A stretch of 11,611 nucleotides of DNA from Verrucomicrobiota bacterium (lineage in GTDB: Bacteria > Verrucomicrobiota > Verrucomicrobiia > Limisphaerales > CANJXF01): positions 1 to 11,611 of the forward strand of contig JBBQRQ010000126.1 of assembly GCA_038214755.1 (NCBI GenBank), read 5' to 3'. The position numbers were made by a program, and so were the translations under genes. A model generated the notes under the pieces. That model saw only the letters and a list, made by a program, of their open reading frames with translations, was not told where the DNA came from and did not search any database. Positions within the stretch are counted from its first letter, which is position 1; the number at the start of each line of letters is the position of its first letter. Shown here piece after piece: positions 2,907-11,277 of this stretch.

Positions 2907-4295
2907 TCCCGCATTGCTTCCCGTCCCTTGCGCAGGAACAACCCAATTTCCGTCAACCATGGAGGCAAAAACCTCGCCTTGGTGCTGAAGAACTGCCTCA
3001 TGCGCTCCGGAGATTTTGCCGGAAAAAGGCAGAGCGATTAAATCCGCGAACGCATTGGGCGTCAGTTCGCCGATTTGCTTTTGCATCCCCAAAGCGCGCG
3101 CGCCGTTGAGCGTCGCCATTTGCAAAATCTTTTCCGTCGGCACGTCGGGATTTGCTTTTGCGAAAGTTTGCATTTCGGAAAACAGGCTGAGTTCAAACGC
3201 ATGGGGAGCGCACGCGTCTCGCGTGCGGTTTTCGGCGTCGCGTCGAAAACTTCGTTCCCCTGAAATTAGCGGCGGCTCCCAATCAGACCCGGGTTTGTTC
3301 AACGAAGGTTGGGGCGCGACGCCCGAACCTGCACGCGGGACGCGTGCGCTCCTAACGCTGGCGAGGCTGTCGGTGCCGAGACAAATATTCACGCCCGCGC
3401 GGTGGAGCAATTCATACGGAAACTTTTTGTGCCGAAAATATTCGTGGCTGCGCGGACAATGGACGACGGAGCATTTTCGTTGGCCGAGCAACGCGGCATC
3501 GCTTTCGGAAATGTAGTTGGCGTGGACGGCGAGAAATTTTTCCGACAAAACGCCGAGCCGTTCGAGTTGCTGGACTGGCGAGATTCCGCAATCGGAAATA
3601 TCGCGCTGCGTTTTGAGCCAATTGAACAGTGGGCCGCGACGGTTTTCAAACATTTCGGATTCTTCGTCGGATTCCGCGACGTGCGTGCTGAGAAGCCAAT
3701 TTTTTTCGCGAGCGATCGCAGCGCTGCATTGCAAAAGTTCCGGCGAAGTGGAATAGAGAGCGTGGGGCGAAAGTCCTGCGAAACATTTTTCGTGACGGAC
3801 CGAATCGATGATTGCGACCGCTTCAGAAACTATTTCTTTGTAAAACCGGCGGCTCTTCACGCTGGTCAATTCCAGCAGGGAACAAACCCGCAACGGAGTC
3901 GCCGTCCAAACTTCCGGCAGCAATTCGGGCACAGCTTCGATGTCCGCGACAGTGGTCGTGCCGGTGCGCGCCAGCATTTTCGCGCCGTTGATCCAGGATT
4001 GCGCGTAGTCCGAATAGGACCATTGCGCTTTCAACGCTAGCATCGACTTGATCCAGTCGCTGAACGATTTTTGCGGAGAAATCATTCCCGCCATGTCGGT
4101 GTAATCGAGATGGCAATGGGCATTGATCAAACCCGGCAAAATAATCGCGTCGCCGAGATCAATGACTTCGTCGGCGAACGAAGACAAATCCGGCCAGCGT
4201 CCTATTGCAGCGATGTGTTTTCCGCGAATCAGAATCGCCCCGTTTTCAATTGGCGGCCTGACCATTGGTAAAACAATATGGGCACGAAGGAGCAT
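2901..4295 (-). CDS. Metal-dependent amidohydrolase (TRZ/ATZ/SsnA-like; aminodeoxyfutalosine-deaminase-like) with an in-frame ~50-aa palindromic insertion
   Basis: PGLINAHCHLD (HxH), SPHALYS, THVAES, VHANY, HCPRSH, LGTDSLAS, MATLNGARALG..G.L....ADL. Start moved to ATG 4295 (MLLRAHIVLPM) because the upstream extension is a translated heptamer repeat. Confidence 0.9.
   Translation of the reverse strand: MLLRAHIVLPMVRPPIENGAILIRGKHIAAIGRWPDLSSFADEVIDLGDAIILPGLINAHCHLDYTDMAGMISPQKSFSDWIKSMLALKAQWSYSDYAQSWINGAKMLARTGTTTVADIEAVPELLPEVWTATPLRVCSLLELTSVKSRRFYKEIVSEAVAIIDSVRHEKCFAGLSPHALYSTSPELLQCSAAIAREKNWLLSTHVAESDEESEMFENRRGPLFNWLKTQRDISDCGISPVQQLERLGVLSEKFLAVHANYISESDAALLGQRKCSVVHCPRSHEYFRHKKFPYELLHRAGVNICLGTDSLASVRSARVPRAGSGVAPQPSLNKPGSDWEPPLISGERSFRRDAENRTRDACAPHAFELSLFSEMQTFAKANPDVPTEKILQMATLNGARALGMQKQIGELTPNAFADLIALPFSGKISGAHEAVLQHQGEVFASMVDGNWVVPAQGTGSNAGT
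3204..3353. repeat. REP doublet (REPIN-like), 150 bp, inside the amidohydrolase ORF
   Basis: 53-bp inverted arms (3204-3256 and 3301-3353, 43/53 matching without gaps) around a 44-bp spacer; each arm holds two small hairpins. Confidence 0.88.
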
Positions 4296-4313: not shown

Positions 4314-4432
<119 letters not shown>

Positions 4433-4908: not shown

Positions 4909-4989
4909 GGGTTGCATCTGCCTGCGGTGGGTGTGGGAGAATCTGTTCGGGAATATAGAATTCGCACCCGCCGGAGGCAGATGCTACCC
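4909..4989. repeat. REP doublet (GTAG-tagged) in the divergent raiA-lysS intergenic region
   Basis: Plus strand GTTG-CATCTGCC-TGC-GGTGGGTG (4911-4933); minus strand GTAG-CATCTGCC-TCC-GGCGGGTG (4987-4965). The whole unit can fold into a long imperfect hairpin. Confidence 0.75.
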
Positions 4990-5044
4990 GGGCCATCAAA
5001 AACTTGGACATCGCCGGGACGCCGGTGTTTTATCTCTGCCTGCC

Positions 5045-6802
5045 ATGGATGAAACGAACTCATTGATCGCACAGCGAAAAATAAAACTGGCCGCTCTCCG
5101 CGCCAAAGGCATCAACCCGTTTGCCAATAAATTTTTACCGAAAGAAAAATGCGGCGACGCGCGCGCCCACTATGTCGAAGGACGCGAAGTCGCGCTTGCT
5201 GGGCGCATCACCGCGCATCGCGAGATGGGCAAGAGCATGTTCATCGACATCAAAGATCAGAGCGGGAGGATTCAAATTTACGCGCAGAAAAATGTTTTGG
5301 GCGATGAGCAGTGGAACATTTTTACGCATCTCGATCTCGGCGATTTTATCGGCGTGAATGGCGCGATGTTCACGACGAAGACGGGCGAAATTTCCGTGAA
5401 GCTGGCGAGCTTTATTATTTTAGGAAAAGCGCTGCGACCGATGCCGGAGAAATGGCACGGCGTGGTGGATACGGAAATTCGATACCGCCAGCGGTATCTC
5501 GATTTGATGGGCAACGATGACGTGAAGGAGACATTCCTGAAACGGAGCGCGATCATTCGTGAGATTCGCAATTTTTTCCATGGGCGCGGCTATGTGGAAG
5601 TCGAGACTCCGGTACTGCAAGGCATTCCCGGCGGCGCGGCGGCGCAACCCTTCAAGACGTTTCACAACGCGCTCGGCTGCGAGTTTTATTTGCGCATCGC
5701 GCTGGAGCTTTATCACAAGCGATTGCTCGTCGGCGGCGTGGATAAAATCTTTGAAATCGGGAAAAATTTTCGCAACGAAGGTTTGTCGCGCAAACACAAT
5801 CCTGAATTCACGATGCTCGAAGCGTATGAAGCGTTTGGGGATTACGAGACGATGATGGAAACGGTGGAGTCGCTAATCTGCCAAGTGGCGGAAAAGATTT
5901 TTGGCACGTTATTTATCACTCATGCTCAAAGAACTGAAACCATTACAGCCTTAAATAATTTAGCAAAAGCAGTTTCCCATTGTGCTCATTCAATTGATCG
6001 AAATTCGGAAGAACTTGGAGCTTTTAGCAATCATATGCTTAACGAATCCATGAGACTGTATCCTCAACAGAATGAACTTTCTCATCTAAAAGCAGACGAA
6101 GGATTAAAGCTCGCCGTTGAATCAGGACGGACGCTTTCTCATCATCTTTCACTTGCCCAAAGTAAAATGACCATGAGTGAGCAAAGCGTCAAAGATGCTT
6201 TCAATAAACTTGATAACGCACGTGCAGAGTTGGAAAAATTAAAGGAACCCAAGACGATCAATCTTACCCGTCCGTGGAAACGCGCGCGCTACAAAGATTT
6301 GGTACGCGAAAGAGCCGGTGCCGATTGGTTTGAAATTTCTCCCGCCGAACGCCGCGAACGCGCACAAAAACTTGGCGTGGAAATCGGGAAGGAATACGAG
6401 GACTTCGAAGTTACCGGAGCCGTCTTTGAAAAATTGATTGAGCCGACCATAAATAATTTCAACCCCATTTTCGTCACGCATTTGCCGAAGGAACTGGTGC
6501 CGCTCGCCAAACTTTCGCCCGATGACCCGACGACTGTAGAAGTTTTCGAATGTTGCATCAACGGCGCGGAGATTGCGCCCGGTTACACCGAGCAAAACGA
6601 TCCGATTGCCCAACGCAACACCTTGGAACATCAAGCCGGCGGCGAACAACAAAAGCTCGACGAAGATTTTCTCGTCGCGCTCGAACACGGCATGCCTCCC
6701 GCCGGCGGTATCGGCATTGGCATTGATCGTTTGTGCATGATGTTGCTCGGCCAAGAAAGCATCCGCGACGTGATCTTATTTCCGCAGATGAAGCCGAAGT
6801 GA
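5045..6802 (+). CDS. lysS: Lysine--tRNA ligase (class II), 585 aa, with a ~109-aa internal insertion
   Basis: AGRI...MGK..F, LDLGDFIGV.G, KALRPMPEKWHG, RYRQRYLDL, EVETPVL, GGAAAQPF.T, YLRIALELY.KRL.VGG, FRNEG...HNPEFTMLE, ALEHGMPPAGGIGIGIDRL, IRDVILFP. ATG at 5045 (MDETNSLIAQRK) preferred over 4754. Confidence 0.97.
   Translation: MDETNSLIAQRKIKLAALRAKGINPFANKFLPKEKCGDARAHYVEGREVALAGRITAHREMGKSMFIDIKDQSGRIQIYAQKNVLGDEQWNIFTHLDLGDFIGVNGAMFTTKTGEISVKLASFIILGKALRPMPEKWHGVVDTEIRYRQRYLDLMGNDDVKETFLKRSAIIREIRNFFHGRGYVEVETPVLQGIPGGAAAQPFKTFHNALGCEFYLRIALELYHKRLLVGGVDKIFEIGKNFRNEGLSRKHNPEFTMLEAYEAFGDYETMMETVESLICQVAEKIFGTLFITHAQRTETITALNNLAKAVSHCAHSIDRNSEELGAFSNHMLNESMRLYPQQNELSHLKADEGLKLAVESGRTLSHHLSLAQSKMTMSEQSVKDAFNKLDNARAELEKLKEPKTINLTRPWKRARYKDLVRERAGADWFEISPAERRERAQKLGVEIGKEYEDFEVTGAVFEKLIEPTINNFNPIFVTHLPKELVPLAKLSPDDPTTVEVFECCINGAEIAPGYTEQNDPIAQRNTLEHQAGGEQQKLDEDFLVALEHGMPPAGGIGIGIDRLCMMLLGQESIRDVILFPQMKPK
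5924..6250 (+). other. Low-GC in-frame insertion domain within lysS (boundaries approximate)
   Basis: Hand count 125 G+C in 320 nt (~39%) for 5921-6240, versus 75/120 for 5581-5700. Lies between KIFGTLFITH and KTINLTRPW, where LysRS normally has a short hairpin. Confidence 0.85.
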
Positions 6803-6850
6803 TCAATGGAACGTCAGCCATGGACATTGTGTAAATCTCAGTGGCGACGC

Positions 6851-6879
6851 TTGTCAGAAGTTCCTCGCGCAGCTATTTT
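6851..6879 (+). promoter_or_regulatory. Putative sigma70 promoter (leaderless) for module A
   Basis: TTGTCA-17 nt-TATTTT, 6 nt before ATG 6886; conserved in the second copy at 7889-7917. Confidence 0.55.
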
Positions 6880-6885
6880 CAAACT

Positions 6886-7044
6886 ATGCAAGCGAAAGCA
6901 ATTGTTGGCGGGAAACTGGTGAGTCTAAAACTCTCTCCCGAACTTGCGCGCGCCCATCGTGCCAACGCTGGCAAAACGATGACGGACGAACAATCCATCG
7001 CCTTCGTCGAAAAGAAACGCGGCAGCTTCCAGAGCCGCAGATGA
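6886..7044 (+). pseudogene. 3'-truncated copy of the putative antitoxin at 7924-8109; no toxin follows (module A)
   Basis: 6850-7020 matches 7888-8058 at 163/171 nt. It diverges after ...VEKKR and ends at a TGA inside a lysS-tail copy. Confidence 0.75.
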
Positions 7045-7052
7045 AACTGAAA
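7035..7052 (+). repeat. Short copy of the lysS 3' end (tail copy 1)
   Basis: CCGCAGATGAAACTGAAA vs lysS 6782-6799 CCGCAGATGAAGCCGAAG (15/18; PQMKLK vs PQMKPK); sits at a module boundary. Confidence 0.65.
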
Positions 7053-7055
7053 TCG

Positions 7056-7083
7056 TTGCAAACGATTGGTGACGCGATACACT
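7056..7083 (+). promoter_or_regulatory. Putative sigma70 promoter (leaderless) for vapBC
   Basis: TTGCAA-16 nt-TACACT, 7 nt before ATG 7091; no Shine-Dalgarno. Confidence 0.5.
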
Positions 7084-7090
7084 GATTTCC

Positions 7091-7318
7091 ATGACCGCTA
7101 TCGCCATCGAGTTGGATCAGAAAATCCAAAGCCTTGATCCTGAAACCGCCGCTTCAGTCGAGCGGTTGGTGCGCGACGCTTTGCAATTGGCGGAGAAAAA
7201 GCAGGCCGTCGCTTCAGTCTGGCCGTCCGATTTCTGGCAACGAATCCGGGAAGATTGGGGTAACGAGCCATTCGAGCGTCCGCCGCAGGGAGAGTTTGAA
7301 AAACGCGAGGACTGGTAA
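7091..7318 (+). CDS. Putative VapB-type antitoxin (module B)
   Basis: 75 aa with an acidic C-terminus (WPSDFW...ERPPQGEFEKREDW); TAATG stop/start overlap with the PIN toxin gene. Confidence 0.8.
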   Translation: MTAIAIELDQKIQSLDPETAASVERLVRDALQLAEKKQAVASVWPSDFWQRIREDWGNEPFERPPQGEFEKREDW

Positions 7319-7722
7319 TGGCGTGGCTTCTTGATACGAACGCCTGGATTCAACATCTCAAAAATCCTGGCGGGCCGGTGGAGCAACGTCTCAACCGCGT
7401 TTCACCTTCGGAAATTCTTCTTTGTGCCGTTGTGAAAGCGGAACTCTGGCATGGCGCACACAAGTATGAGCGGCGCGAACGTCGGTTAGTCGCCTTGCAC
7501 AATTTATTTCAACCTTTTGTCTCGTTGCCTTTCGATGATGCCGCCGCGCATCATTACGCAACCGTCCGGCACAATCTTGAAACTCTCGGTCAAATCATCG
7601 GCCCAAACGATCTCAAAATCGCAGCCATTTGTCTCGCGCATGGATTGACGCTGGTTAGCGCCAACGTCGGTGAGTTCGGTCGTATTTCGGAATTGCGCGT
7701 GGAAAATTGGGCAAAACTTTGA
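7318..7722 (+). CDS. vapC: VapC-family PIN-domain ribonuclease toxin (module B)
   Basis: [36 protein letters not shown]...[11 protein letters not shown]; the PIN acidic residues are present. Confidence 0.93.
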
Positions 7723-7865
7723 ACAACAAAAGATTTTCTCGGCACGCTCGAACGCAGCATGCCTCGGTCAGCAGGATCGGCATTGATCGTTTGTGCATGA
7801 TGTTGCTCGGCCAGGAAAGCATTCGCGAGTTGATTTTATTTCCGCAGATGAAGCCGAAGGCATAG
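7721..7865 (+). repeat. Long degenerate copy of the lysS 3' end (tail copy 2)
   Basis: Aligns to 6644-6802. 7779-7859 vs 6719-6799 is 76/81 identical ([28 protein letters not shown]). The 5' part has small deletions, including 10 nt between AAG repeats and one GGCATT unit. Confidence 0.97.
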
Positions 7866-7888
7866 TGTTGCGCCGCATTTTCGCAAAC

Positions 7889-7917
7889 TTGTCAGAAGTT
7901 CATCGCGCAGCTATTTT
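7889..7917 (+). promoter_or_regulatory. Putative sigma70 promoter (leaderless) for module C
   Basis: TTGTCA-17 nt-TATTTT, 6 nt before ATG 7924. Confidence 0.55.
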
Positions 7918-7923
7918 TAAACC

Positions 7924-8109
7924 ATGCAAGCGAAAGCAATTGTTGGCGGGAAACTGGTGAGTTTCAAACTCTCTCCCGAACTTGCGCGCGCCCATCGTGC
8001 CAACGCCGGCAAAACGATGACGGACGAAGAATCCATCGCCTTTGTCGAAAAGAAACGCCGCGCTCTCGCGTTGCGTCGCGCCAAACCTTATCTTGAGAGT
8101 CGTCCTTGA
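7924..8109 (+). CDS. Putative antitoxin of unrecognised family (module C)
   Basis: 61-aa ORF upstream of and overlapping a PIN toxin gene; a second near-identical partial copy exists in the window. Confidence 0.7.
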   Translation: MQAKAIVGGKLVSFKLSPELARAHRANAGKTMTDEESIAFVEKKRRALALRRAKPYLESRP

Positions 8110-8512
8110 TACCTGCGTGCTGAAGCTGGCGACGCTGCCGAATCCCGTCAATCCGGCAGCCTTGATCGTGGAACTTTGTTTGACCGGCAATTTGCGGGCG
8201 TGGACCTCTCCCGCAATGATCGAGGAATATCAGGAAGTCCTTTCCGATGAACCACAACTTCTCCCACGAATGCTCTCTGTTCTGGAATTTTGTTATCCAT
8301 TGACCGAACTGGATGTCATCCGTCACAAACCGGATAATCGTTTTCTGGAATGCGCGCTGGCCGTCACGGCGGATTTCATCATCACGGTCAATACCGCGCG
8401 CGGCCATTTTGATCAGCCCAAATATCAATCGGTGTCTGTCATAACTCCGGGCGCATTCGTGAATTCGCCTGATATCCAAAAGCTGATGCGAAAACAATTC
8501 GGCTCCGCGTGA
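8093..8512 (+). CDS. PIN-family putative toxin (PIN_3/TIGR00305-like; module C)
   Basis: From TTG 8093: MRVVLDTCVL...SPAMIEEYQEVL...IRHKPDNRFLECALAVTADFIITVN...VITPGAF. Confidence 0.88.
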   Translation: MRVVLDTCVLKLATLPNPVNPAALIVELCLTGNLRAWTSPAMIEEYQEVLSDEPQLLPRMLSVLEFCYPLTELDVIRHKPDNRFLECALAVTADFIITVNTARGHFDQPKYQSVSVITPGAFVNSPDIQKLMRKQFGSA

Positions 8513-8540
8513 TTCTGTTTCCGCAGATGAAGCCAAATAA
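8509..8540 (+). repeat. Copy of the lysS 3' end (tail copy 3)
   Basis: GTG ATT CTG TTT CCG CAG ATG AAG CCA AATAA vs lysS 6770-6796: 23/27 identical, all four differences silent (VILFPQMKP). Confidence 0.9.
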
Positions 8541-8563
8541 CCGCAGGATAAAATTTGCCCTGA

Positions 8564-8591
8564 TTGACTTTGTGCACACTGTGCACAAAAT
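8564..8591 (+). promoter_or_regulatory. Promoter with palindromic operator for module D
   Basis: TTGACT-16 nt-CAAAAT overlapped by the perfect inverted repeat TTTGTGCACA-C-TGTGCACAAA (8569-8589); ATG at 8600. Confidence 0.7.
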
Positions 8592-8599
8592 TCGATGAA

Positions 8600-8977
8600 A
8601 TGAAAACCGCCTACGTCTCCGCTCGCGTGCCACTGCGCTACGAACGGTTGGTCGCGAAACAAGCCCGCGCCGCGAAAACTTCCAAGAGTGATCTCGCTTC
8701 CCGCTATGTTATCGAAAAATCTCTTGAGACGGAGTTTCCCGGAATCTCTTTCCGCGATTCATTGTCCGGACGCGAAGCCTATCTCACTGGTCATCGGGTG
8801 GCGGTTTGGGAAGTGGTCGATGTTCACGCGGAATTAAAGTCGGTGGAGAAAACGGCGGACCATTTTCACTGGCCATCGGTCATCGTGAAACGCGCGATTG
8901 CTTACGCCAAAGCTTTTCCTGAAGAAATCCGTGAGTCGCAGGAGGGAGAGAAATATGGCGTTCAAGCTGTTGGCTGA
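8600..8977 (+). CDS. RHH + DUF433-like antitoxin (module D)
   Basis: N-terminal RHH-like VSARVP...KTSKSDLASRYV, then FPGISFRDSLSGREAYLTGHRVAVWEVV...TADHF....VKRAIAYAKAFPEEI; paired with a DUF5615-like gene. Confidence 0.82.
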   Translation: MKTAYVSARVPLRYERLVAKQARAAKTSKSDLASRYVIEKSLETEFPGISFRDSLSGREAYLTGHRVAVWEVVDVHAELKSVEKTADHFHWPSVIVKRAIAYAKAFPEEIRESQEGEKYGVQAVG

Positions 8978-9335
8978 CGAGAATACTTCGCATCGTTTGG
9001 TATCCGCTTGCCGCCGTCTTGTGCCGGAGTTTTCACTGATTCATCTCGCCAACTGGCAGGACGGAATGTGGCTGGGATTGGACGACGCCGCCTAGTTGAT
9101 TTGCTGCGCTGAAGTGAAACTCATTCTCGTGGCTTTTGATCGCTCGACCCTCGCATGGCACGCCGGACAATTGCTCCGCGCCGGTTACGATCACGCGGGA
9201 ATTATTTTATTTCGCCGGAGTGTTCGAAGTTCAGATCACGGTCATCAATCGCGACTGCTGACTGGCTTTTGGCCGGGCGAAGGAAAGAATTGGGACTGGC
9301 AGAATCGCATTGTTTATTTGCCGAAGTCGGCGTGA
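8955..9335 (+). pseudogene. DUF5615 (PIN-like, VapC45-type) toxin interrupted by an in-frame TAG at 9093-9095
   Basis: MAFKLLADENTS...LGLDDAA*LICCAEVKLILVAFDRSTL...HAGIILF...WQNRIVYLP. Both halves are in the same frame; GGAGG upstream. Confidence 0.85.
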
Positions 9336-9362
9336 ATCGGATGCGAAGTTAAAGCAGGCTAA

Positions 9363-10490
9363 ATGAATTTTAAAACGACACTTCAATTTTGCCTCTGTCT
9401 TTTCTTGGTGTCGCTTTCAACAACCTTCGGTGAAAGCGCGGAGCAAATAGTTTTGGACATCACTCCAACGAAAGAATTTCCGCGCAACTCCGAAGGCGCT
9501 TTCGTCACCCTGAAATCCAAACGTGTTTTGTTTGTCTATTCTCAATTTCAGGGTTCAGCCGCGGATGAAAGTCCGGTGCGAATTGTTTCCGTTTTTTCCG
9601 ATGACGGGGGGCGAACCTGGAGCCAGCAACCCGAAGTCGTCGCGCAGAATGGTGGCGGGCAGAATTTGATGAGCGTCTCCCTCTTGCGTCTGGCGGATGA
9701 ACGCATCGCCCTGTTTTATCTCGTCAAAAATAACTTTCACGATTGTCGCCCGGTGATTTGTTTTTCCGCAGACGAAGCGAAAACGTGGTCGAAACCCACG
9801 CCCGTTTTCGCCGCGCCCGGTTATTTTGTTTTAAATAACGATCGCGTCATTCAAACCCGTTCCGGCCGTTTGATTATGCCGGTGGCTTTTCACCGCTCGC
9901 GCAATGGAAACCCAAATGATCCGCACACGCTCGATTACCGCGCCATCGATTTGTGGTATTTGTCGGATGACAGCGGGAAGATGTGGCGGGAGGCGAACGA
10001 TTGGCGGGCAATTCCGCTTCCGAGCAAAACGGGTTTGCACGAACCCGGAGTGGTGGAACTGGGGAACGGAAATATTTTTAGTTGGGCGCGCACCGATCAG
10101 GGTTGTCAGTTTGGCTGCATTTCGACGAACCGAGGAATCTCGTGGTCGATCCCGGAGCCGACCGCGCTCAAATCGCCCATCGCGCCCGCCAGCATTAAAC
10201 GGCTGCCAAACTCAACGGACTTGCTCGCGGTTTTTAACGATCATTCCGGCGATTTTCCTTTTGAAAAAAATAAACGCACGCCACTCGTCACGGCGATTTC
10301 GAGTGACAATGGCAGGACGTGGGCGAAAAAAAAGTTAATTGAGAACGATCCGCAAGGCGCATTTTGCTACACGGCGATTCATTTTATCGGCGATTCCGTA
10401 TTGCTCGGTTATTGCGCCGGTGATCCGGGAGTGAACGGGTTAAATCGCCTGCGAGTCCGACGCATCGCTTTGCCGTGGCTGCGAGAATAA
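9363..10490 (+). CDS. Secreted sialidase-family / BNR (Asp-box) beta-propeller protein
   Basis: Signal peptide; Asp boxes SDDGGRTW, SADEAKTW, SDDSGKMW, STNRGISW, SSDNGRTW; also RNSEG, NNDR, HEPGVVEL, RTPL and YCYT-like motifs. Confidence 0.88.
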   Translation: MNFKTTLQFCLCLFLVSLSTTFGESAEQIVLDITPTKEFPRNSEGAFVTLKSKRVLFVYSQFQGSAADESPVRIVSVFSDDGGRTWSQQPEVVAQNGGGQNLMSVSLLRLADERIALFYLVKNNFHDCRPVICFSADEAKTWSKPTPVFAAPGYFVLNNDRVIQTRSGRLIMPVAFHRSRNGNPNDPHTLDYRAIDLWYLSDDSGKMWREANDWRAIPLPSKTGLHEPGVVELGNGNIFSWARTDQGCQFGCISTNRGISWSIPEPTALKSPIAPASIKRLPNSTDLLAVFNDHSGDFPFEKNKRTPLVTAISSDNGRTWAKKKLIENDPQGAFCYTAIHFIGDSVLLGYCAGDPGVNGLNRLRVRRIALPWLRE

Positions 10491-10569
10491 CCCGGCCAAC
10501 AATGATTGGGAATCTTGCTCTCGCTTGATCCTTCTCCTTCGCCGACTGGGAACCGGCGCGCAAAAAAAA

Positions 10570-11277
10570 TCAGTTGCTTACTTCCAGCACAATGGCGCCG
10601 GGAATGATACGCAGGCTTTTGACACCTCGCAGCGCGGGCCTTCCGTTGTGTTGGCCCACCGCGTCGGCGAGAAGATTTTCGCCCTTCAAACCGCCCAGCC
10701 ACGCCTTCGGCAGGCTCAGCCCCAGCACTGTGACATCTTCCAAGATTGCATAAGGCGCTTGATCATTGAGCGACACGCGGAAGCGACCGCGGGCGCGAAA
10801 TATTTTTCCGCCCCCCACGGGAAAATCTTGCGGGATGGGCACGGCCAAATAGGCATTGATGGCGTCGCGCGCCAACTCCAGTCGCACCGTTTTGCCAAGG
10901 TCCGTGTTCGCGTTCAACAACCCGTTCAATTCCCGTTCGGTCAACTGCAACTCTTTTGAACCCGGCGTGTAAGACCGATCAAGTTCTGGCTTCGAAACGG
11001 AGTCGCGCGAGGACGAAATTGATGAACGACTTTCCGCCGCGCCACCGAGATGCTGAAGTTTATCATCCACTTTTGCTTTTTCAGATGCTGACAAGACCAC
11101 CGGCTTGATCGGGCGCTGCAACCACCAAAGCGTGATGGCGACCGTCGCGACGATGATGAGCAGCAGGGCGAGCAAACCGCCGCAGCCAAAGAGCAGCCAA
11201 CGGCGTCGTTTCGGAGCGGGCGCTGGAGCGGAACCGCCTACTGGCTGGAGCGGCGGGGGCGTGGAATGGGGCGTCAT
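10570..11277 (-). CDS. Hypothetical single-pass membrane-anchored protein
   Basis: Pro-rich N-terminus, KRRR, then one TM helix (WLLFGCGGLLALLLIIVATVAITLWW); soluble domain with LTERELNGLL and LGLSLPKAWLGGLKG. Confidence 0.8.
   Translation of the reverse strand: MTPHSTPPPLQPVGGSAPAPAPKRRRWLLFGCGGLLALLLIIVATVAITLWWLQRPIKPVVLSASEKAKVDDKLQHLGGAAESRSSISSSRDSVSKPELDRSYTPGSKELQLTERELNGLLNANTDLGKTVRLELARDAINAYLAVPIPQDFPVGGGKIFRARGRFRVSLNDQAPYAILEDVTVLGLSLPKAWLGGLKGENLLADAVGQHNGRPALRGVKSLRIIPGAIVLEVSN

Follow-up and report, generated by a model that had tools for sequence, protein, structure and literature searches.

The lysS gene examined here is followed by a stack of small toxin-antitoxin (TA)-like cassettes separated by copies of the lysS 3' end. 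We consider it probable (about 0.68) that this stack, which has no recombinase nearby, was built and spread through the host's homologous recombination machinery acting on DNA from related bacteria. The window, that is, the whole stretch of 11,611 nucleotides analysed, contains the tail-copy-punctuated array reported in the initial annotation, with lysS at 5045-6802 and tail copies at 7035-7051, 7721-7865, and 8508-8537. The order is lysS, A', copy 1 (17 bp), B (vapBC-like), copy 2 (145 bp), C (PIN), copy 3 (30 bp), and D (DUF433/DUF5615), and the modules are 0.2-0.8 kb in size. The features are as follows.

5045..6802, + strand: lysS, class II lysyl-tRNA synthetase (LysRS), 585 aa (gene call; PF00152, E 1.8e-84; PF01336)
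5921..6250 (bounds approximate), + strand: in-frame LysRS insert, approx. 100-110 aa, GC 0.40-0.44 (segment-length survey)
6644..6802, + strand: working lysS tail, the part recurring downstream (sequence comparison)
6851..6879, + strand: promoter-like TTGTCA-17-TATTTT before A' (consensus match only)
6886..7044, + strand: module A', truncated copy of the C antitoxin, 52 aa (132/138 nt identical to C)
7035..7051, + strand: tail copy 1, eroded core (15/17 vs 6782-6798; remnant reaches about 7011)
7091..7318, + strand: module B putative antitoxin, 75 aa (no family match)
7318..7722, + strand: module B predicted VapC-like PIN toxin, 134 aa (PF01850, E 2.8e-16)
7721..7865, + strand: tail copy 2, 145 bp, beginning at the equivalent of 6644, with 10-nt and 6-nt deletions and its own stop
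7889..7917, + strand: promoter-like site before C (consensus match only)
7924..8109, + strand: module C putative antitoxin, 61 aa (no known family)
8093..8512, + strand: module C predicted PIN_3 toxin, 139 aa, TTG start (PF13470, E 1.4e-13; TIGR00305 above cut-off)
8508..8540, + strand: tail copy 3, 30 bp plus its own TAA (8508-8537 vs 6769-6798, 26/30)
8564..8591, + strand: promoter-like site before D (consensus match only)
8600..8977, + strand: module D putative antitoxin, 125 aa (PF04255, DUF433, E 0.023, below cut-off)
8955..9335, + strand: module D DUF5615-like toxin, pseudogene (stop at codon 47, 9093-9095)

The 17-mer core of the tail occurred three times in the 5.1-Mb genome, each time inside the window. 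Copy 1 had been placed from the equivalent of 6782 onward, which held, but at a length of 18 bp, which did not: it matches at 15 of 17 positions over 17 bp. Marginal on that alignment alone, it is nevertheless a genuine eroded copy, given that its region aligns with a 50-nt tail copy and the B leader of the same-genus genome G003 (99 identities, 22 mismatches, and 8 gaps). In the same junction alignment, A' is fused to copy 1 at a short shared word. Copy 2 is a different allele, ending K-P-K-A-stop and 88% identical to the lysS of G001, and in the affinity ranking its own and other alleles tied (rank 2). Copies 2 and 3 share their first bases with the TGA stops of the B and C toxins, respectively, and the C toxin TGA falls within copy 3. 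Since A' nearly duplicates the C antitoxin in truncated form, the repeat extends past the tail (6663-7027 vs 7730-8064). A fourth tail-like match, at 9758-9782, lies in frame in an Asp-box repeat of a BNR gene and was rejected as a chance match.

Modules B, C, and D have the layout of type II TA systems, namely a small overlapping gene pair with the antitoxin first, a PIN-family second gene, and a promoter of their own, and from this layout a TA function is predicted for the modules. The promoter-like sites are consensus matches only, four being found against 1.7 in shuffles, and the B promoter was judged by eye (8/12). Within the order, 20 of the 351 genomes, G000 among them, carried homologs of the B antitoxin, and the B toxin scored 116 bits against NF047863, under the cut-off of 140. 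The C antitoxin, already described as novel, had no Pfam or NCBIfam match and no usable Atlas match, and its PDB matches were solely designed proteins. In an alignment of 15 loci it is conserved 5' of the PIN gene, and residues D6, E45, D81, and E86 of the C toxin are invariant in 15 sequences. Neither module C nor the whole array matched the plasmid and phage collections. The D antitoxin is 81% identical to a gene behind lysS in G042, where the D toxin homolog is intact (126 aa, PF18480 above cut-off).

We compared the tail copies with working lysS genes. In 22 lysS copies of at least 70 nt, 468 of 1244 third positions were mismatched, vs 158 of 2491 first and second positions. Working lysS alleles of different genomes show 36-52% third-position vs 0-9% first- and second-position mismatch, and the copies were close to these values. 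This codon-position pattern indicates that the copies are alleles, not decayed duplicates. Of 21 copies of at least 78 nt, 20 resembled the lysS of another genome more closely than the lysS of their host genome. For the G007 copy, identity is 92-95% to same-genus lysS and 83% to the G007 gene itself; for the L240 copy, it is 96% to L137 and 76% to the L240 gene. Conversely, the working lysS of G007, L240, L121, and G024 is mosaic, matching its kin upstream of the insert and dropping after it; between L240 and L137 the identity falls from 91-99% to 74-80% past the insert. This drop places the left crossover far upstream of the copy start. The foreign part of the working gene in G007, L240, and L121 takes in the insert and already starts some 1 kb upstream, against copy starts of -177, -367, and -372. 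Judged by these affinities, the working gene in several relatives is a mosaic and the copy is the native allele. The foreign-allele copies and mosaic genes bear out the initial proposal that a donor lysS end recombines within lysS and displaces the resident tail with the older modules. In the window, the last 80 codons of the working lysS are 92-95% identical to same-genus lysS and copy 2 gave a tie, so the polarity is seen in relatives and not in this window. Indels along the copies numbered 18 vs 9 from 5' to 3', 12 of them from one copy, and formed no clear decay gradient. Donor and resident tails differ by 15-25%, a divergence that is high for RecA pairing.

Tail copies were found behind lysS in 41 of 160 related loci, against 3 in the control; these loci are related and partly duplicated, so the counts are not independent events. 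The copies start at -24 to -372 and their 3' ends cluster at the stop, in agreement with the ragged 5' and fixed 3' ends noted before. Up to four modules are stacked in the related arrays, which take their TA and other cassettes from a common pool and carry the same packets in shuffled order. The layout downstream of lysS is variable and not identical or fixed across relatives; in G001, another species and not a strain, lysS is followed directly by the resident gene, giving an empty site. The insert site within LysRS was likewise hypervariable in the segment-length survey, and the insert itself had no Pfam match and Atlas matches only below 0.8. C antitoxin homologs of at least 72% identity lay behind lysS or a lysS tail in five of seven loci, those of 52-65% identity in none of eight; this linkage amounts to one change on the tree (0/500 shuffles), with weak group support (73/45). 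For B homologs of at least 65%, the figure was 7/11, and module D showed no such locus lock, with one of 29 loci at lysS.

The junctions were of two kinds. One ParE/RelE cassette was joined at about -85 in L034, L035, L092, and L175 and eroded in L033 and L182 (all six loci shown), a junction common to three families with five different downstream neighbours. Gap-free fresh copies begin 3-19 nt from the cargo stops (L173, L189, L240, and L245). Together, these two observations suggest that the cassettes are likely to carry a pre-formed second homology arm. Of 47 same-strand lysS joins, 35 lay between -26 and +32 nt relative to the cargo stop, whereas a range much like this one holds 34% of ordinary gaps. 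Stop words close to the 5' edges of the copies (37/53 vs 0.32) are confounded by the cargo stop. By contrast, the right junctions of B were at about -155, -83, -89, -328, and -372 or absent, and those of C at -34, -38, -135, and about -280 or absent, indicating that double crossover with a second arm is not the sole route. The C, B, and ParE/RelE joins show shared words near the cargo stop, an appearance that later deletions would also produce.

We infer the following course for the enzymes, the entry of the DNA, and the order of events. In a rare first step, linear donor DNA carrying a lysS end and cargo would cross over inside lysS and, by homology-facilitated illegitimate recombination, be joined to a more distal point of the resident lysS through a short shared word. 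The working end would then be the donor's, and the resident end would survive 3' of the cargo. In a commoner second step, the cassette would have two homology arms to one gene, lysS to its left and the tail copy to its right, and could enter the lysS of any relative by double crossover irrespective of the downstream sequence. The newest cassettes would enter beside lysS, older ones would shift away, and subsequent deletions would wear down copies and redundant modules. The genome encodes RecA, ComEC, and DprA. Such displacement would give the chronological array proposed initially, whose repeats may also let modules loop out, but modules need not arrive singly: G175 has the layout lysS-C-tail-B, a possible source of A'+B, from which the latter is derivable by one insertion and one deletion.

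A circle model like that for rhs tips, in which a cassette loops out between tail copies as a small circle, passes to another cell, and enters the lysS end there through a single crossover, is unlikely here. It needs no recombinase, yields allelic repeats, and, as modelled in PMC2935791, would explain shared junctions, locus locking, and variable copy length. However, a circle can replace lysS only inside the copy span, yet the foreign tract in G007, L240, and L121 begins far outside it. The loop-out joint was also not found in the contigs of run X1, though contigs drop rare forms.

It is improbable that every cassette made its own illegitimate join with one arm and that later deletions trimmed the joins to the cargo stop. 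The differing right junctions of B and C and the truncated A' speak for such joins, as do the broad cargo-to-copy distances (-28 to +609) at 40 other genes of this genome that carry the same scar, and the same mechanism is proposed for type VI secretion (T6SS) arrays in the accessible part of PMC5361080. It does not account for one junction kept across families with different neighbours, for undecayed copies that already abut the cargo stop, or for the excess of joins near that stop; such joins are also, in the same source, orders of magnitude rarer than homologous recombination. The resident tail is indeed displaced, as the initial annotation held, but its one illegitimate join per new module is hard to reconcile with the ParE/RelE junction.

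The 40 other sites were hand-picked, and two of the alignments caught an internal piece. Their mismatches were again concentrated at third positions (447/1898 vs 233/3787 at first and second positions), and no junction word was shared across them. The TA array is thus anchored on lysS here, but the scar is neither lysS-specific nor TA-specific, since it occurs at these other genes with other cargo.

It is very improbable that the array consists of remnants of integrase-driven elements that took the lysS end for their attB and piled up in tandem, their integrase having been lost or working in trans; this reading is largely refuted. Streptococcal integrative conjugative elements (ICEs) do use the lysS 3' end, but with a tyrosine integrase and fixed 13-17 bp repeats (PMC4701971, as far as its text was available). 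The clustering of copy 3' ends at the stop would also fit, and five tyrosine and one serine recombinase matches occur elsewhere in the genome. However, no recombinase was found in any array examined: no recombinase or transposase was present among the 14 window ORFs scanned, as stated initially, no tyrosine recombinase matched in 870 kb behind 175 lysS loci, and none was found among 91 and 70 cargo proteins, serine recombinases being covered by the Pfam scan of the 70. A fixed short att core is contradicted by the range of copy starts and by the lack of a shared word or motif across about 40 unrelated host genes, and the mosaic lysS reaches far upstream. The array spacers are coding lysS sequence, and attC-like folds were absent at the array (z 0.57, -1.91, 0.34, and 0.86, the -1.91 being a palindrome in the B leader). 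Integron arrays likewise hold ordered cassettes but use IntI and attC hairpins, neither of which was seen here, so the earlier judgement that neither a fixed-att element nor an attC integron fits is upheld. The window contained no tRNA and no Rfam match; six relative loci contained one tRNA in all, located upstream of lysS.

Contigs of run X1, which may be the source sample and is not long-read data, tile 4964-10959 with 0 other letters; unique pieces have a depth of 22-25, and single pieces span 6939-7808 and 7977-10959. An assembly chimera of strain variants is therefore hardly credible, although this is a short-read MAG whose window is one whole contig and whose contig graph is broken by repeats, because depth is flat, single pieces cross junctions, and the same architecture recurs at 40 other loci from other assemblies.

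Published precedents exist in long target duplication, in rhs and T6SS displacement arrays, and in fungal mitochondrial ORFs. For insertion with long target duplication, Nobusato et al. 2000 is reportedly a further reference. The system described by Furuta, Abe and Kobayashi 2010 (PMC2853133) resembles this array, in the text available, in its small addiction-type cargo, long variable direct repeats, often at starts or stops, and absence of a mobile-element gene, and it is found mostly in competent species. Its cargo consists of restriction-modification genes ('toxin' is absent from the main text), and its repeats are read as duplication of the target, whereas the repeats here are allelic and of different origin, up to four modules are stacked, and the pool is shared across families. 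The insert here is under 20 kb with no other mobile element, and G001 provides the empty site in a related genome. Copy 2 exceeds 30 bp and the lengths vary, copies 1 and 3 being at or below 30 bp. The cargo is TA-like and other, not R and M, and allelic divergence and foreign best matches argue against both repeats coming from one target. A homologous crossover on one side is seen as the mosaic anchor of G007, L240, L121, and G024 and is not resolvable in the window, few-base joins on the other side occur at C, B, and ParE/RelE, and no recombinase lies in or beside the element at lysS.

Vibrio T6SS effector-immunity arrays (PMC5361080) and rhs displacement (PMC2935791), insofar as these texts were accessible, are likewise polarised on a conserved upstream anchor, new modules pushing older ones back and homologous recombination spreading finished arrays; homology-facilitated illegitimate recombination or circles are proposed. 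Their anchor is the toxin's own delivery gene, and its swap alters protein function, whereas the anchor at lysS is an unrelated, essential gene, its protein is left intact, and the cargo forms an operon of its own. Next to fungal mitochondrial endonuclease ORFs (PMC3630166), the array shares a foreign gene end that replaces the native one, left 3' of the cargo, and a polarity read from sequence affinity; those ORFs rely on a homing endonuclease encoded by their cargo, whereas the PIN and ParE/RelE cargo here is of RNase-type families and this array contains no homing nuclease. TA-only islets (PMC13617665) are also chromosomal TA loci without mobile-element genes, for which spread by recombination is proposed, but they need two conserved flanking genes, and 'direct repeat' does not occur in the available text; here both arms match one gene, leaving the downstream neighbour free. 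PMC2654758 and PMC2884548, in their accessible parts, are background only. A literature search, with subscription journals largely outside its coverage, returned no report of TA arrays behind lysS tail copies.

A wider reading, which we hold only tentatively, is that the lysS end is a recombinase-free platform across families, on which selfish cassettes needing only RecA and carrying a pre-formed arm stack and drag the LysRS domain along, resulting in addiction-driven allele replacement. If so, this order of Verrucomicrobiota would have cassettes that stack like integron cassettes with RecA alone, addiction modules would drive allele exchange of an essential translation enzyme between families, and a hypervariable in-frame LysRS domain would travel with them. 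For the arrival and spread of chromosomal TA modules without integrase or transposase, recombination at flanking core genes is proposed in PMC13617665. The lysS locus offers a testable route, in which a leftover gene end makes any cargo self-targeting for one conserved gene, regardless of the gene that follows. Essential genes would thereby join rhs and T6SS loci as sites of displacement arrays. The route predicts cassette lineages locked to a locus, marker trees misled by mosaic housekeeping genes, and a simple, countable genome-wide scar.

We scanned the genome for this scar. At score 40, tail-vs-downstream matches occurred in 51 of 3191 genes, mid-gene matches in 16, and reverse-strand matches in 3, counts that include paralog repeats. 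The head-vs-upstream mirror control gave 27/3134, against which the tail enrichment is modest. The polarity test at the purC and aroF sites of this genome did not favour the copy; at purC, the working tail matched seven same-genus genomes at 0.77-0.90 and the copy at 0.70-0.79.

The genome containing the window is 5.1 Mb in size and 97% complete, and the window corresponds to the entire 11.6-kb contig C126. Its closest lysS relatives were mostly from Verrucomicrobiota or Limisphaerales. As listed below, four modules, all on the + strand, are set apart by three copies of the lysS 3' end (tail copies).

5045-6802, + strand: lysS (gene call)
6886-7044, + strand: module A', a truncated near-copy of the module C antitoxin (132/138 nt identical)
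7035-7051, + strand: tail copy 1 (15/17 match to the lysS end)
7091-7722, + strand: module B, vapBC-like; the second gene encodes a PIN protein
7721-7865, + strand: tail copy 2 (145 bp), with two deletions; its start corresponds to 6644
7924-8512, + strand: module C, a putative novel antitoxin gene followed by a PIN gene
8508-8537, + strand: tail copy 3 (26/30 match to the lysS end)
8600-9335, + strand: module D, a weak DUF433/DUF5615 pair; toxin with a stop at codon 47
Before A', C, and D, + strand: promoter-like sites (sequence match)

Tail copy 1, the shortest, can be aligned with a 50-nt copy preceding the same module in the same-genus genome G003 and is therefore considered real. Contigs of a sediment sequencing run (X1), which may be the source sample, tiled the array region at even depth with no variant letters. 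The layout lysS-A'-copy-B-copy-C-copy-D described in the initial annotation was thus reproduced by gene calls, copy alignments, and flat depth in contigs of one run. In each module, a -10-like hexamer was located 6-8 nt 5' of the ATG (6851-6886, 7056-7091, 7889-7924, and 8564-8600), a spacing that suggests leaderless mRNAs. Palindromes were present within the leaders of B and D and could be operators. Homologs of the 235-aa gene at 10570-11277 are the convergent neighbor of aroF in four same-genus genomes, so the gene order of the window differs from that of the genus.

The survey of lysS took in 181 loci: the window itself, 20 relatives that were retrieved, and 160 found by homology searches. 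Downstream sequence of 1 kb or more was available for 160 of them, and the set contains a few duplicates and at least one chance match. A tail copy was detected behind lysS in 41 of the 160 loci, with two or more copies in 13, against 3 in the reverse-strand control. Copy starts were spread from -24 to -372 nt relative to the lysS stop, and most ends lay within ~5 nt of it. The cargo formed a common pool whose order changed between loci. In a scan of 70 of 105 representative proteins, module C was found at 7 loci, a ParE/RelE pair at 6-7, B at 4, and D at 2, together with other toxin-antitoxin (TA) pairs. Variable TA content between copies with ragged 5' and fixed 3' ends, as initially proposed, was therefore borne out. 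Ordinary genes (for an ABC transporter, ankyrin proteins, and thioredoxin proteins) were also among the cargo. At four loci (L118, L121, L132, and L195), the gene behind lysS is an ordinary one of the ABC family whose terminal residues come from a lysS tail copy in another frame. The lysS site was empty in G001, of the same genus. A copy within 1.5 kb was found at 1/29 purC and 1/28 aroF loci, each positive being the source genome; lysS is a hotspot for tail copies compared with these two genes. The relative genome G009 (unpublished), on which none of the principal conclusions rests, had one further lysS locus, plus a purC locus sharing its ParE cassette with the source genome.

The scar was also found at other housekeeping genes of the source genome. 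The last 45 nt recurred within 3 kb downstream in 51 of 3,191 genes, compared with 16 for mid-gene probes, 3 on the reverse strand, and 27/3,134 for gene heads versus upstream regions, counts that include paralog repeats. Forty non-lysS sites were chosen by hand, with hosts including purB, purC, deoC, pyc, accC, a gyrB/parE gene, glyA, ilvD, ftsK, aroF, mutS, and lipA. Of their 98 cargo ORFs, 91 were scanned, the 7 that overlap the copies being omitted. TA-type families were found at 19 sites, 10 of them through a TA or PIN label in Pfam itself and 9 through DUF433, DUF4258, DUF4160, DUF5615, or nucleotidyltransferases, which we take to be TA-associated. No junction word common to the 40 sites exceeded the null. 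Further multi-copy tail arrays were observed at L067 (ilvD), L063 (gyrB/parE-like), L075, and L073, with TA, MNT-HEPN, AbiEii, Fic, and GIY-YIG cargo.

We compared the copies with the genes that they follow. In 22 lysS copies of at least 70 nt, mismatches occurred at 468/1,244 third codon positions and 158/2,491 first and second positions, resembling working alleles of different genomes. The 40 other sites were alike (447/1,898 and 233/3,787). Such a bias would not be expected from neutral decay of a fresh duplicate. Of 21 lysS copies of at least 78 nt, 20 had a better match in another genome's lysS than in their own. Judged by these sequence comparisons, the tail copies are foreign alleles. 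The copy in genome G007 shared 92-95% identity with lysS of the same genus, compared with 83% with its own lysS; for the copy at locus L240, the values were 96% with L137 and 76% with the lysS of L240 itself. In G007, L240, L121, and G024, the working lysS resembles the same kin 5' of a variable insert and departs from them 3' of it. These results indicate that the resident end was displaced in these relatives, as initially proposed, and that the left crossover lay ~1 kb 5' of the stop, much farther upstream than the point where the copy begins. In the window, however, the polarity test did not decide between copies and working tail, and at purC and aroF of the source genome it did not favor the copy.

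Among 47 same-strand joins at lysS, 35 lay within -26 to +32 nt of the cargo stop; 17 overlapped it, and the stop is therefore often supplied by the tail copy. Four loci had the ParE/RelE cassette joined at one and the same point (~-85), and two more retained eroded traces of this junction; together they span three families and five different neighbors. For the C and B antitoxins, close homologs were behind lysS in 5/7 and 7/11 cases, and distant homologs were behind other genes (0/8 and 0-1/7 at lysS); D homologs (1/29 at lysS) had no lysS tie.

We favor, at a probability of about 0.68, a two-step model. A rare one-arm illegitimate join would yield lysS'-cargo-tail, and the tail would then be a second homology arm by which the cassette could enter the lysS of relatives by double crossover. 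The initial mechanism would thus stand for displacement via lysS recombination and is amended by this double crossover, given the ParE/RelE junction common to three families. The genome contains recA, comEC, and dprA. In the window, D was likely the first module to arrive and C the second, followed by a composite of the C-tail-B type seen in genome G175; loss of the second, redundant C toxin by deletion would finally have left A' and the eroded copy 1. A route through loop-out circles is unlikely. Independent illegitimate joins alone would fit the several different junctions of both B and C, but this reading appears still less probable, because the ParE/RelE junction is shared and several undecayed copies already adjoin the cargo stop. 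The genome has recombinase matches (five tyrosine, one serine), all on other contigs. Integrase remnants are very improbable: no recombinase or transposase was found among the 91 cargo ORFs at the 40 sites, and the five tyrosine recombinases, used as queries against 870 kb of sequence downstream of 175 lysS loci, gave no match, in agreement with the initially noted lack of an integrase. An assembly chimera is hardly credible given the even run X1 coverage.

Judging from the available parts of these papers, the lysS array works like rhs (PMC2935791) and T6SS (PMC5361080) displacement arrays and fungal mitochondrial ORFs bearing a foreign C-terminus (PMC3630166). It outwardly resembles insertion with long target duplication but, as far as the accessible part of that source goes, lacks its restriction-modification cargo and single origin of both repeats (PMC2853133). 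An ICE remnant was rejected because copy starts vary, and an integron because no attC-like hairpin was present at the copies. The literature searched, whose coverage largely excludes subscription journals, yielded no account of TA arrays located behind copies of the lysS tail.

One site in the LysRS of this group (window 5921-6250; lysS of L031-L250) carries in-frame insertions and is hypervariable, and donor tracts in lysS take in the insert. Among 117 proteins, 69 had the short form, 15 had ~30-50 extra residues, many resembling translated palindromic repeats, and 33 had 80-150 extra residues, very divergent from each other. The insert had no Pfam match and no usable Atlas match. A 135-aa ORF without a Pfam match (2336-2743, opposite strand), between the bioF-like and amidohydrolase genes, is possibly another small insert. 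Heptamer tandem repeats (an AACATCG array and two other units) occur at gene ends (4314-4430, 611-640, 955-981, and 1636-1670), and a related repeat-derived peptide is in frame within lysS of G003 and the relative G042. Palindromic repeats were observed at 4909-4989, 2870-2906, and 3205-3352. The one preceding lysS is covered by many other run X1 contigs (bin depth 2439), and that at 3205-3352 lies in frame within the amidohydrolase gene.
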